Source: a bacterium
GTDB lineage: Bacteria; Zhuqueibacterota; Zhuqueibacteria; Oceanimicrobiales; Oceanimicrobiaceae
Direction of reading: 5' to 3'
DNA length: 64,000 nucleotides
Assembly (NCBI GenBank): GCA_046757025.1
Contig: JBHHXN010000005.1
Coordinates: forward strand, 25,989-89,988
Shown: one piece after another, positions 31,034-64,000 of the stretch
Layout of the letters: every line of letters begins with the position of its first letter
Position numbering within the stretch: position 1 is the stretch's first letter
Notes under the pieces: model-generated
Databases searched by the model: none
What the model was told of the DNA's origin: nothing
Seen by the model: only the letters and a program-made list of their open reading frames with translations
Translations under genes and position numbers: made by a program

Positions 31034-31161
31034 GTAAGCTCGCCGTTCTGCTTTACTCAAGTTTCGCGCTTAGAGAATTTTAACCTAAACAGAGCGATTT
31101 AGCGTTGAATTGGCCTGTTAACGGGATCTGGTGTTTAGAATCAAAGGTGTTCACGCTTCAG

Positions 31162-31336
31162 AGACTGTGTGAAAAAGTGATATCGCGGCTAAAAACCCAA
31201 TGCGCCATTATTGTCATCCAACAACCGCGGGATCTTTTTAATAAACAGCACTTACGTACAAACAAAATACATTCCGACAGCCAGTCCCGCAATGCGCGGA
31301 AGACAAACCTGGAGTTTGTGCGTTTTCACACAATCT
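31162..31336. mobile_element. MITE-like element with AGACTGTGTGAAAA / TTTTCACACAATCT ends (IS1182-like termini)
   Basis: 13/14 terminal inverted repeat; 175 bp; degenerate TGTCATCC..CGCGGGATC / CCCGC..GCGGAAGACA core; family assignment from recalled end sequences. Confidence 0.6.
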
Positions 31337-31512
31337 GTTCAGCGTGTTTCTCCCCACGCACTCCGGCACATTGAAATGCACCTCGATGATGAATCCCTCG
31401 GTTTGGCTTATAAACTTTTCTGCCAGATTACCGCTTTGTAATTTCTATCCAATCATCCGCAGCGTATTCTGTATTCCGTAATCCATATTCATTTCAAAGT
31501 TCCTATTCACAC

Positions 31513-31710: not shown

Positions 31711-32676
31711 ATGAAAACACGGATGCTTGCTTGCCTGATTTTAGGCGTAGTTATGGTTTCGCCGCTATTTAGCAGCGAAACGGCTGTCATCATCAAAGTG
31801 ACGGGTTTGTATGGAATCATCAACAAAGGTACCAACCAGGGACTGCAAGAAGGCCAAGTATTTTATGTCAAAAGAGCAGTGTCTTCGCAATGGCAGGATG
31901 TGGCTAAAGTGAAAGTGATTCGAACCACCGCCAACCGAGCCGCTGTGGAACAAATCACCCATTCCAGAAAATTTGTCATTCAGAAAGGGGACAAGTTGTT
32001 TGCCAACAAGGAGGTTGTTTTCACGCCGCCGGTTGTGCCGAAGAAAGCGGCGGCGCCACCGACGCCGGTGGTAAACAAGCGGCTAGGAAAAAGGCCTGCA
32101 GTCGAACCCATTACCGAACCAGTTAATAAACAGAATGATGTGTCCCTTCCGGAGCCGGCTTATACTTATCAACGCAAAAGCTATCTACGGGAACCGTGGG
32201 TGAGTCTCAATCTGGGTTCCATTTTTCCGAGTGGTGAATTAGGGAATGCCATTTCACCCAGCATAAAATTTGGCGCCAGCTACATGGTGTCTACCGGCAA
32301 CAACTTAAATCTGGGAATTGAAATCAATCGAACTTTTTTTAGCGGTAGCGAATTAGGTAACAGTAATTTGACCGGCAGCAGCATCGAGTCGTCCTCGATA
32401 TTGGAAGCCATCGTGGTGTTTCAAAAATACTTTGGAAATCACTTTTTTATCGAAACCGGCGGCGGCATTTACCGACCCAAAATCAAAACCATTTCGGTGG
32501 ATAAGATCGAATCTAGTTTTTCATCTTCCAATTTTGGCTTGTTTGGCGGAACCGGATTTTTTATCCCCACCAGTAAATATGCCGGATTTACTTTGAAAGG
32601 CAGAATGCACAACTACTTTGATGAAACCACCAAGCAGTATTTCGGTTTGAGTGGCGGTTTTCGTTTTAAAATGTAA
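31711..32676 (+). CDS. Exported protein: FlgT-C-like beta domain, Pro-rich linker, C-terminal outer-membrane beta-barrel
   Basis: Signal peptide; INKG..QGL..G..F.V...VA.VKV...IQKGD; PPVVPKKAAAPPTP linker; amphipathic strands ending GGFRFKM. Confidence 0.6.
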   Translation: MKTRMLACLILGVVMVSPLFSSETAVIIKVTGLYGIINKGTNQGLQEGQVFYVKRAVSSQWQDVAKVKVIRTTANRAAVEQITHSRKFVIQKGDKLFANKEVVFTPPVVPKKAAAPPTPVVNKRLGKRPAVEPITEPVNKQNDVSLPEPAYTYQRKSYLREPWVSLNLGSIFPSGELGNAISPSIKFGASYMVSTGNNLNLGIEINRTFFSGSELGNSNLTGSSIESSSILEAIVVFQKYFGNHFFIETGGGIYRPKIKTISVDKIESSFSSSNFGLFGGTGFFIPTSKYAGFTLKGRMHNYFDETTKQYFGLSGGFRFKM

Positions 32677-32824
32677 CAGATTGTGGTAAAAAAAATCTGG
32701 CCTCGGCAGTTGCTGGGGTCAGGCGAGATGCAGGATCAATAAAATACCGAGGCCAAAATTAATAAGGAGGAATTCTTTTACAAAAGTTATCGACGGCTAT
32801 TTGAAAACCTGAAGTTTTTTTTTG

Positions 32825-32944
32825 AGGGGCGGCCCAATAAAAACTCGCCACGGATCATCTCGGCATAATAGTAGTTTAGACGATTTGTTTAATCAGAGCT
32901 TATCCCTGATTAAAATAACGGAAATGGATTTTTGGGCTGCCCCT
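32825..32944. mobile_element. MITE-like element (AGGGGCGGCCCAA / TTGGGCTGCCCCT ends)
   Basis: 12/13 terminal IR, 120 bp, flanked by TTTTTG on both sides. Confidence 0.55.
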
Positions 32945-32961
32945 TTTTTGATTAAAAAAGG

Positions 32962-33143
32962 TAACTATTCTGCCGGGGTTGTCATTCTCAGCGCAAATTT
33001 CGGGTTCTTTGCTCATCTCCACGGATACGGATGTGCGAAGAATCTCTTAGCCGGTTCGCAGGATGCTTCGCGCAGATACTTCCGCTGTGATGCTGCACAT
33101 TTGTGAGTTTGCGCTCAGCATGACGGTTTAGGCTGAACAGTTA
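32962..33143. mobile_element. MITE-like element with TAACTATTC(T/A)GCC ends and internal REP doublet
   Basis: 11/13 terminal IR; inner IR GTCATTCTCAGCGCAAA (32981-32997) / TTTGCGCTCAGCATGAC (33108-33124). Confidence 0.65.
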
Positions 33144-33152
33144 TTAAAAAAT

Positions 33153-33357
33153 TAACATTTCTCACTTCGTGACGTGATTCATAAACCAACTGTTAATTAA
33201 GAGGTTACTGATTGTTCTACTTTCACCCTGAGCGGAGTCGAAGGGTGACTAGTTCTGGATGTAATTCATGCTTCGACTCCGCTCAGCATGAAGTGAACCT
33301 GTCGTATCTAATTATTTAATATGAACATAGTTTCATAACTTAAAGTGAGAAATGTTA
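33153..33357. mobile_element. MITE-like element with perfect 15-bp ends TAACATTTCTCACTT and internal REP doublet
   Basis: 15/15 terminal IR; inner inverted pair TCACCCTGAGCGGAGTCGAAG (33223) / CTTCGACTCCGCTCAGCATGA (33271). Confidence 0.75.
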
Positions 33358-33378
33358 GTAAAAAAGTTTAAATTATTT

Positions 33379-33817
33379 GTAACGATTCAGTTGTTAGCTA
33401 TCATTCCTGCGAATGCAGGAATCTCCTCCGACATCCATTGAAACAAGTTCAGCGTACAAGTCTTGCCATTCTGGATACATTTCTCGAGGGTCATTTATTC
33501 ATGATTTTTTCCCGAGTTGTCATGGCAGTACTATCGGATGTTTGTTGAAACCACACCAGCTTGTGGCAATGGTGGTTTTTATTAAATCCCTGGCTCAATC
33601 CCTTTTTGTGTTCATCTACACGTTAAAAAAGGTTGTTCGTAACCTGATGTCAAGTGCGTTGTTATGTTTGTTTGACAATATGTACAATTATTAGTTTTCC
33701 ATAATTCTTATACCTGAATTTGTTTCACTTGATTGAACCAGAAAGAATTCTTTTCTGACTTTTGTCCATTGAATCGGGAGACTCCTGCATTCGCAGGAGT
33801 GACACCTGAGTAGCTCC
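33379..33817. mobile_element. Composite element: GTAAC.ATTCAG-type ends, inverted REP pair, GIY-YIG remnant
   Basis: REPs TATCATTCCTGCGAATGCAGGAATCT (33399-33424) and AGACTCCTGCATTCGCAGGAGTGACA (33779-33804), 23/26 inverted match; degenerate outer ends. Confidence 0.7.
33445..33702 (-). pseudogene. Decayed GIY-YIG nuclease gene
   Basis: Manual translation across 2 frameshifts and 4 stops: MEN**LYILSNKHNNALDI / VTNNLF*RVDEHKKGLSQGFNKNHHCHKLVWFQ...REKIMNK* / MYPEWQDLYAEL, matching the small GIY-YIG family pattern YVYIL.N...LYIGVT..L.RRV.EHK...GFT.KY...KLV.....REK..K.W...NP.W.DL. Confidence 0.85.
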
Positions 33818-33857
33818 ATTTATTTTAATAAAGTTAAAAAAAACCTGTAATTTTCAC

Positions 33858-33886
33858 TTGACTAAATGTTAAAAATTCCTTATAAT
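33858..33886 (+). promoter_or_regulatory. sigma-70 promoter of nuo operon
   Basis: TTGACT-17 bp-TATAAT. Confidence 0.85.
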
Positions 33887-33944: not shown

Positions 33945-34373
33945 ATGCTATTTAATTTTGCCGCGATCTTAGTGTTTTTGCTTTTTGGTGCATTGTTTGT
34001 CGGCATAAATTTTCTTTTGTCCAGATTACTACAAACACGAAATCCTTTTCCCAGTAAAATCAGTACTTACGAATGTGGAGAGATTCCCGTAGGTGGCGGC
34101 TGGCTGCAATTCAATATCCGTTTTTACGTCATTGCGCTGATCTTTTTGATATTTGAAGTTGAAATCGTGTTTCTTTTTCCTTGGGCCGTGGTGTTTAAAA
34201 AGCTGGGCGCCTTTGCTTTTGTCGAAATGATGATTTTCATTGTGATATTGCTGGTGGGCCTAGCTTATGCCTGGGTGAAAGGCGATCTGGAATGGGACAC
34301 GCCCACGAGCGTTCCCGCTGCTGAGCACCAAAATTTGATCACCAAATCCCTTACCAAAGAACTGGCTTCTTAA
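33945..34373 (+). CDS. nuoA: Complex I membrane subunit A
   Basis: [39 protein letters not shown]. Confidence 0.96.
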
Positions 34374-48907: not shown

Positions 48908-49097
48908 AAATCCCTGCTTTAAGTGGTGTGGAATAAAATTAAAGAGCTAACACCTTTAATATGGGAGCTTAGCTCTGAGCGTGTATTGCATGCCTCATCC
49001 CGATTCATCGGGATAGTGGACGCAAAAAGCGTTCAGGCGGCGCCCACCGTGTCGTTCGAGTTCTTTCGATGACCCCATACTAACAAAGCAGGGATTT
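48908..49097 (+). ncRNA. ssrS: 6S RNA
   Basis: ~190-nt rod: AAATCCCTGCTTT/AAAGCAGGGATTT closing stem, AAAGAGCT/AGTTCTTT stem, central bubble, TGGGAGC/GCGCCCA and CTGAGCG/CGTTCAG stems, GCATGCC, apical ATCCCGAT hairpin. Confidence 0.78.
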
Positions 49098-49733
49098 TTA
49101 TTTGCCGACCTTTGCTATTATATCATTTCAAAAAAACCTTTTTCCGATATGACTTGACCTGCATCGGAATGGTCGCACCGACTGGATTCAGTTACCCGAG
49201 TTTATCTCATTTCCTATGATGGAATAAATTTATAAAAAAGCAGGACTGGCTAAAGATTTGTTGTTTTCTTTTGGCATGAAATTGCGAGGATAATTAAATT
49301 AGGGTGTCTCAATTCATGGCCGAAACAGAGGAGACCTTCGTGAGGGCGTTGCCACCATTTCCAAATAACTTCATTTGTTCTTAAAAATAGCTGTCTTACG
49401 AAATTGGAAGCATAAAAAAATCTTGACTTTTGAATTACAATTTAGTAATTTTATCTACCTAAAAAATATGAAATTATGAGATTAATCGAAGTTCTTTCAC
49501 CAAAATCCTGATTTCTTACTACGATTAAACCTGCCAGTTCTGATAATAGGGTTAGGATGGCTCCTGTTAATTCCATTGACAAATCTCATAGTATTAAAGA
49601 GCACGTGTAATAAGTTCATATTTTTTATTTCACGCTGGGATTGTGTTCTTTAAGAATCTCCTGATTTAATTCAAAGTAGGAACCGTTGAACAAATGCGTC
49701 ATATTTGGACGTGAAGCATTTGGGGAGAGTAAA

Positions 49734-51201: not shown

Positions 51202-51354
51202 TAGTGTTCATACGTGATCGTCATGCCCAGCGGGCTCCCTGCTAACGGCTTGCCGGGATCGGCTTAAGGGGAAATTTCATGCCTAACTGACGAATGGATT
51301 CCCACTTAAAGCTCGCCGCAATGATAACATAAGGCGCTTTACGAATGGACACGA
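51202..51354. mobile_element. MITE-like element family C (TAGTGT.CAT ends, CGTCAT REP-like core)
   Basis: GTGTTCATACGT / ACGAATGGACAC 10/12 IR; left end matches 63946 onward at 22/27. Confidence 0.6.
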
Positions 51355-63945: not shown

Positions 63946-64000
63946 TAGTGTCCATCGGTAATCGTCATTCCCGAGTGCCGTTATCGGGAATCTCGTGCCT
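63946..64000. mobile_element. Left end of MITE-like element family C with CGTC-type REP (truncated by window edge)
   Basis: TAGTGTCCATCGGTAATCGTCATTCCCGA...TCGGGAATCT; matches 51202 onward. Confidence 0.55.

Follow-up and report, generated by a model that had tools for sequence, protein, structure and literature searches.

Four adjacent elements in the intergenic kilobase upstream of the nuo operon have ends of the insertion sequence (IS) kind, and three of them enclose inward-facing pairs of REP hairpins, an arrangement that recurs throughout the genome. We consider it roughly three-to-one probable that these units were pasted in by different IS transposases acting in trans, with the CGTC-type hairpin pairs travelling as passengers of the IS ends. 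Spread by IS transposase is, we infer from sequence comparison, likely, and it is well supported by target-site duplications, shared ends and genome-wide counts. The window analysed is a 64,000-nucleotide stretch of contig C5, in a 5.96-Mb assembly of 374 contigs that is 94.8% complete.

The earlier note had described four adjacent units here, and all are present where it placed them, with limits that shift slightly once flanks are compared. Its three types of terminal inverted repeat (TIR) also hold: GGGGC.. in unit 1, GTAAC.. in units 2 and 4, and (C/T)TAACATTTCTCAC in unit 3, as do the inward-facing pairs of (G/T)TCA-headed palindromes in three of the units, namely 2 to 4. Units 2 (32961-33144, 184 bp) and 3 (33152-33358, 207 bp) are MITEs with IS66-type GTAAC ends and IS4-type (NF049925) ends, respectively, and unit 4 (33379-33817, 439 bp) again has IS66-type ends. 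All three are copies of dispersed MITE families: blastn rows with coverage of at least 70% number 16 for unit 2, 8 for unit 3 and 6 for unit 4, counts that include the unit itself and, for units 2 and 4, one partial row each. The copies lie at unrelated sites, as expected of type II MITEs. The other hallmarks of that class are TIRs around a short non-coding core, which the units have (the core of unit 4 holds only a pseudogene); target-site duplications, which are seen for units 2 to 4 and in the family statistics and are weak for unit 1; and ends, with no common core, shared with autonomous IS, which here are those of other genomes only.

Unit 2 is flanked by TAAAAAAG on its left (32953-32960) and by TAAAAAA on its right (33145-33151), the eighth base having been displaced by unit 3. 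The same 7-bp TAAAAAA stands on both sides of unit 3 (33145-33151 and 33359-33365), with a G after the right copy, and therefore unit 3 likely entered the right duplication of unit 2, which would make it the later arrival. The flanks of unit 4, AATTATTT (33371-33378) and ATTTATTT (33818-33825), agree at 7 of 8 bases; its right end is decayed. Better-kept copies exist at C28:34307 and C129:9742, and the 8-bp duplication around the C129 copy is perfect. Unit 1 (32826-32943, 118 bp) has GGGGC..CCAAAA ends, no CGTC REP and no (G/T)TCA palindrome pair, and contains one unrelated 27-nt hairpin (32888-32914). It stands alone within a dispersed end type: its core is single-copy, matching only itself by blastn, and the genome holds 9 other pairs with such ends. 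An 8-bp direct repeat, TTTTTTGA, flanks it (left copy 32818-32825 on the plus strand, right copy 32944-32951), and this may be a chance match; the left copy falls within a T-run, and the GGGGC end type shows no consistent duplication in the genome-wide family statistics.

In the inner layer, the two REPs of unit 4 have the features of CGTC REPs (8-9 bp stem, 4-5 nt loop, inverted dimers): the left one (33399-33424, plus strand) has an 8-bp stem, a 4-nt loop and a head decayed to TATC, and the right one (33779-33803, minus strand) has a GTCACTCCTGCG head. Between them lies a decayed ssn-type GIY-YIG gene with its upstream leader (33430-33771, minus strand), interrupted by stops and frameshifts, which the first reading of this DNA had overlooked. 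A tblastn search from copy C129 gives 64% over 50 aa (E 2e-14) at 33494-33643, PF01541 scores above cut-off in sister copies of unit 4, and the remnant has the Ssn layout of a single-domain GIY-YIG protein of ~95 aa between inverted hairpins. On these matches, unit 4 is predicted to be a dead REP-ssn(GIY-YIG)-REP cassette in IS66 ends. Every unit-4 GIY-YIG copy in the genome is broken, and one in-frame stop is common to four of them, so that copying likely continued after the gene had died; in shorter derivatives of unit 4, the gene has been lost between the hairpins. An intact 98-aa GIY-YIG homolog, 52% to copy C129, is found at C173 (G000:C173:9606-9899), with arrays of GTCATTTCGA-headed hairpins on its flanks and no shell.

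The REPs of units 2 and 3 fit the CGTC type in head and dimer layout and depart from its sizes in having imperfect stems or long loops. In unit 2, the left REP (32981-33045, plus strand) has a GTCATTCT(G/C)AG head and the right REP (33060-33124, minus strand) a GTCATGCTGAG head, both with a long inserted loop. The doublet of unit 3 (33222-33292) consists of TTCACCCTGAG.. at 33222-33248 and TTCATGCTGAG.. at 33266-33292 on the minus strand. This REP type is not confined to IS4-type shells: several other shells have it as well, with spacers particular to each, and it is found in relatives too. GTAAC ends are also found around GxxExxY remnants, and some other shell cores are what we take to be RAYT-type. 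In several shell types, some copies have and others lack one and the same 23-bp insert in the REP loop (for example at G000:C151:5346, C170:1753 and C132:11657).

Recurrence of the two-layer design had also been claimed at 31162-31336, 51202-51354 and 63946. The first two are two-layer elements, now delimited at 31161-31337 and 51204-51352; the third starts at 63948 and has ends of the 51204 family, but is cut by the contig end. The 31161 element is a MITE with a REP doublet and the ends of an IS1182 element (L111), and the 51204 element is a decayed copy of a doublet-bearing MITE with the ends of a 2.0-kb ISNCY element (L305), from a family whose duplication is 6 bp, TANNTA. At 70% coverage or more, and with self included, blastn returns 17 rows for the first and 43 for the second. 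Sequence comparison identifies 63948-64000 (plus strand) as the left part of another ISNCY-ended MITE. The 4-bp duplication of the 31161 element, TTCA, lies in the loop of another hairpin repeat (31146-31160, resuming at 31338). Insertion of IS1182-ended MITEs into the loop of this other repeat is seen at 31146-31346 and genome-wide. The host repeat is in turn enclosed by further shells, which brings the nesting to three or four layers.

Across the genome, REPs and shells coincide far more often than chance allows. We scored 12 end types, six taken from the flagged elements and a list of k-mers and six supplied by an unbiased scan for inverted repeats; other repeat clusters, some of them without REP, were listed only. 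REPs were scored by head patterns; a regular expression for perfect hairpins missed many REP types. A REP head is present in 212 of the 362 TIR pairs, a few of which are chance pairs, against 29 expected from matched intergenic intervals, and an inward doublet in 116 of the 362 against about 4. These pairs make up 6% of intergenic DNA and contain 315 of the 908 heads, about 200 heads being chance occurrences. With each amplified subfamily (at least two copies) counted once, 19 of 28 have a REP by hand count (binomial P 5e-15 at a chance rate of 8%, 2e-6 at 25%), subfamilies that share REP sequence and may not be independent. The two outcomes that the earlier note held against its own proposal, TIR pairs mostly devoid of REP cores and co-occurrence at chance level, are thus not what the genome presents. 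Shells without such cores do exist, among them a 131-bp IS1182 type (10 copies) and a 426-bp CTCAAG type (8 copies). A 250-bp dispersed repeat ending in CTAG (G000:C114:16867-17119 and ~20 more copies) has neither a REP head nor an obvious terminal inverted repeat.

The target-site duplications indicate which layer moves. GTAAC ends have duplications of 8 bp (17 of 33 with no more than one mismatch), the CTAAC ends of the unit 3 type of 7 bp (11 of 15 pairs), GAG ends of 4 bp (27 of 46 exact) and GTGTCC ends of 6 bp (41 of 50). Directly outside 112 doublets, by comparison, sequence identity is 0.21-0.36 with no duplication. Since duplications flank the shell and never the doublet, the shell is likely the moving unit and the hairpins its cargo, and where the earlier note left it open whether doublets end up inside MITEs or hitch-hike on them, hitch-hiking is the better half of the choice.

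Full-length IS with the same ends were found in other genomes. IS66 elements with a single ORF, a length of 1.5-1.8 kb and GTAAC(T/G)A(C/T)TCA ends are present at 3 of the 30 IS66 loci from the phylum (L076, L078 and L082), none of the three with an 8-bp duplication; the L076 transposase scores as IS66 at 308.7 bits, above cut-off (NF033517). GTAAC ends are likewise present, here with a perfect 8-bp duplication, on an annotated IS66 from a Ca. Chlorohelix plasmid (L436). The ends of unit 3 bound elements of 1.57-1.65 kb, at least three (L162, L179 and L207) among the 116 loci listed, with transposases that match NF049925 (NCBIfam IS4_4) at 256-313 bits, above cut-off, and that Pfam places as DDE_5, IS701-like. 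L111 is IS1182 at 405 bits and L305 is ISNCY at 361 bits, both above cut-off. MITE spacers and full IS show no match beyond ~30 bp. The expectation that each TIR could be matched to an autonomous IS was therefore realised for the IS66, IS4-type, IS1182 and ISNCY ends, contrary to the third adverse outcome, that no IS would share them, and these owners together with the counts above bear out the placing of REP doublets inside MITEs of several transposase families. For unit 1, there is resemblance only: a GGGGC..CAAAA skeleton is common to it and the IS1182 elements L095 and L097, a sister shell agrees with L095 in 24 of 28 bases, and no full element with the exact ends of unit 1 occurs among 25 loci. 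IS1595/IS1016, suggested as the owner of unit 1 by its end motif, was rejected because the genome has no PF12762 and IS1182 ends fit better. GTG..GAAAA ends, the commonest type with 141 pairs, are absent among 60 IS66/IS1182 loci. No transposase cognate to the unit and element ends was found in this 94.8% complete, 374-contig assembly, where IS66, IS1182 and IS1595 transposases are all missing, and none of the unit or element ends stands in the printed flanks of the five PF01609 matches in the genome. Repeats are often left unassembled in draft assemblies.

How the hairpins came to be enclosed is a separate matter. They may derive from free Ssn (GIY-YIG) cassettes, a cassette or doublet having been enclosed by IS ends perhaps once per subfamily; most simply, a cassette would land in an IS or a small IS remnant, and a deletion would follow. 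Gene loss would then leave short doublet cores, which an IS transposase could copy around the genome. No empty unit-3 shell was found in the 7 relatives searched and very short shells have the look of subsequent deletions, which leaves the capture itself unobserved. A fold-back origin, in which end, spacer and REP were duplicated in inverted orientation, was rejected, since the two spacers resembled each other in 2 of 18 groups, compared with 4 of 46 cross-family controls. We regard as unlikely, if worth stating, a dedicated route in which single-strand, hairpin-bounded fragments cut by Ssn, RAYT or similar small nucleases were joined to IS ends and which would account for the main spread of CGTC REPs in genomes of this kind; were it true, almost every IS family would gain miniatures with the recognition hairpins of other elements as cores. 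The published SRM pattern has 0 matches in the window and 94 in the genome against 23-29 in shuffled sequence. No RAYT flanked by these REPs was found in the 2 of 3 Y1_Tnp matches whose flanks were compared, both of which show other palindromes.

Alternatively, the doublets could themselves be the active movers, REPIN-like and served by Ssn or RAYT in trans, with MITEs as neutral AT-rich landing sites, so that shells would have little weight in doublet spread. The genome does contain an intact ssn gene flanked by REP arrays, and the same REP types appear across shells with different spacers, as does the recurrent 23-bp loop insert, which means that something acts at the level of the REP. Outside this genome, too, the cassettes are mostly naked: of 110 ssn loci, 73 have hairpins on both sides and enough flank, and 7 of these have an outer inverted repeat, two being true shells by eye and ~71 of 73 cassettes having none. 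Against this, the copies of any one subfamily have shell, spacers and core in common and vary solely outside the ends, doublet edges lack duplications, and the few free doublets are grouped around the ssn gene. Complete shells account for 102 of the 159 doublets; 37 have a recognisable end on one side (a class with a 16% chance rate) and 2 are cut. The remaining 18 are free, 4 of them on the flanks of the intact ssn gene and 5 within a shell of a thirteenth type. Mobile doublets may explain the first entry of a core but not the copy numbers, and we consider them improbable as the main agents.

A less probable alternative still is that shells were swapped, nested insertion and recombination through shared REPs moving a core from one set of ends to another. 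Many elements are nested (at C11, C28, C107, C142, C167 and C273), IS1182 elements lie inside REP loops (L096), and a chimera at C149:107 joins the left arm of unit 3 to a GTG-type right arm; however, that chimera lies where its contig begins and could be a product of misassembly, and block transfer predicts like inner spacers where the same REP type is accompanied by different ones in each shell. Swapping is in any case compatible with hitch-hiking and alters the origin step only. Least probable is selection for cores with strong hairpins or bending sites that aid end pairing or make insertion harmless as terminators: IHF-like sites are central in several shells (14/14, 20/22 and 13/14 matches) and four relatives (L013, L014, L017 and L021) have a terminator-like hairpin at this site where a scan finds none in the present genome, but IHF-like sites are not enriched in IS66 (3/26) or ISNCY (0/50) shells, their counts are inflated by sister copies, and core-less shells have been amplified too. 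The shells with central IHF-like sites are of the IS1182-like and GTACGG types.

To return to IS ends with passengers, related shells in other genomes hold varied contents. On an unrelated metagenome contig (L393), an open ssn gene lies within IS66-type ends with a perfect 8-bp duplication, and true outer shells at about 2 of 73 ssn loci indicate that most cassettes have no shell and are captured now and then. Distinct CTAAC shells elsewhere number 23, of which 12 have a significant hairpin (flank control 3/39) and 4 a CGTC head, whereas 10 GTAAC shells include 3 with a CGTC head and show no excess of hairpins (2/10 versus 2/18 flanks). Cargo is thus broader than CGTC REPs and is not carried by every shell. 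In the present genome, L431 (G000:C51:10051-11747) is a 1.7-kb element with IS66-type ends, a perfect 8-bp duplication and no transposase, and its ORFs encode a T5orf172-domain protein and a four-helix-bundle (23S rRNA IVP) protein.

tIS and MIC231 are IS-ended elements with passenger genes. Unit 4, L393 and L431 are similar in having IS ends around non-transposase genes, while what they carry here is small cassettes between repeats (GIY-YIG, four-helix bundle, GxxExxY), mostly decayed to repeats. Isolated precedents for the REP-in-shell design are published, in the available portions of the papers concerned. QMITE2 of Coxiella burnetii, a MITE bounded by TIRs and direct repeats of 7-11 bp, has a REP within it, and REP dimers of H. 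neapolitanus (CGTC-1) and A. variabilis (GTAG-15) lie inside longer palindromes that were never seen empty (PMC5896051, PMC3733652). QMITE2 has a GTAG REP and is one family with no IS owner given in the accessible text (PMC5896051), whereas CGTC REPs occur here in at least 9 end types. In the survey that reported the dimers, CGTC REPs are described as having a TGTC/CGTC head, head-to-head dimers and no dedicated transposase (PMC3733652), and head and dimers are alike here, as are the 8-bp stem and 4-nt loop in unit 4; the outer palindromes of that survey are, in its available part, not tied to IS ends or duplications, and here they are tied to both, with four IS families. Ssn nucleases cleave single-stranded DNA at a point a few bases upstream of the hairpin, and unit 4 and C173 share the hairpin-GIY-YIG-hairpin layout of Ssn with NTS/SRM repeats (PMC11893778). 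That paper likens the layout to an IS, and its main text, as accessible, mentions neither MITE nor outer IS ends, whereas the present cassette has IS66 ends (PMC11893778). Type II MITEs are small and multicopy, with duplications and with IS similarity limited to the TIRs, as here; the accessible account states no origin for their cores and gives no REP or nuclease cassette as a source, whereas REPs form the cores here (PMC10969869). Our literature search, centred on papers outside subscription, found no description of a multi-family REP-in-MITE design.

This genome links CGTC REPs, catalogued without a transposase, to the cores of type II MITEs. Hairpins ride within IS66, IS4-type, IS1182 and ISNCY ends, and a whole nuclease cassette would be carriable likewise. 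The passenger reading offers a testable route of spread, one that would plant many candidate Ssn cut sites between genes. Repeat catalogues that separate REPs from MITEs would split one element in two. Of the two-tier parasite system proposed earlier, the two layers are real, and the word parasite is stronger than the evidence.

The flagged kilobase is bordered by a 353-aa ORF that ends at 32676 and by a nuoA-like ORF at 33945. The same upstream gene is present at 9 of 13 relative loci, the units are matched at none, and the gap measures 221-316 bp at the 6 orthologous loci with both anchors compared with ~1180 bp here; the four units and their duplications sum to 979 bp. These relatives belong to other genera, so the absence of the units is not a strain-level empty site. 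Contigs from four DNA runs of one study hold no joint that skips a unit, but they break at repeats and are thus uninformative on empty alleles. The units likely landed one after another in an AT-rich intergenic gap. Genome-wide, 53 of 350 elements lie inside or within 60 bp of another, against 12 in intergenic and 20 in AT-rich simulations, an excess overstated by a null that omits nesting. The nuo-upstream locus is the sole three-element cluster in the list, and it has four members once unit 4 is added, whose end was too decayed for the pattern to catch. Flanking AT content is 0.76 for IS66-type and 0.81 for IS4-type shells against 0.61, and preference for AT-rich targets suffices to account for the pile-up. 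What was called an insertion hotspot is therefore a clustering above simulation that is modest and fits shared AT-rich targets.

A sigma-70-like nuo promoter (33858-33886, plus strand, 11/12 consensus match) lies outside the elements, and similar boxes are present in L013, L014 and L017, on which grounds a promoter made by an element was rejected; no effect of the locus on the nuo operon is shown here. Structured RNA as the nature of the units was also rejected: at Rfam gathering thresholds, the flagged kilobase has no match, the sole one in the window being a 6S RNA gene at 48908-49098. Just downstream of the four units with respect to its own minus strand orientation, which puts the units upstream of it, a conserved non-coding motif at 32693-32795 is shared by 7 orthologous loci. 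It consists of a CCUCCU (anti-Shine-Dalgarno-like) stretch, a 12-bp stem with two-sided changes in 6 of 14 pairs, and a U-run; it has no Rfam match and is a candidate small RNA directed away from nuo. Two further arrangements were noted by eye: at L003/L433 (G000:C95:17364-17573), a small GIY-YIG gene seems to interrupt a GxxExxY-like gene, and at L002 (G000:C59:26963-27172), a small GIY-YIG ORF has a tRNA-like gene on one side and, on the other, a repeat of the 3' end of that gene.
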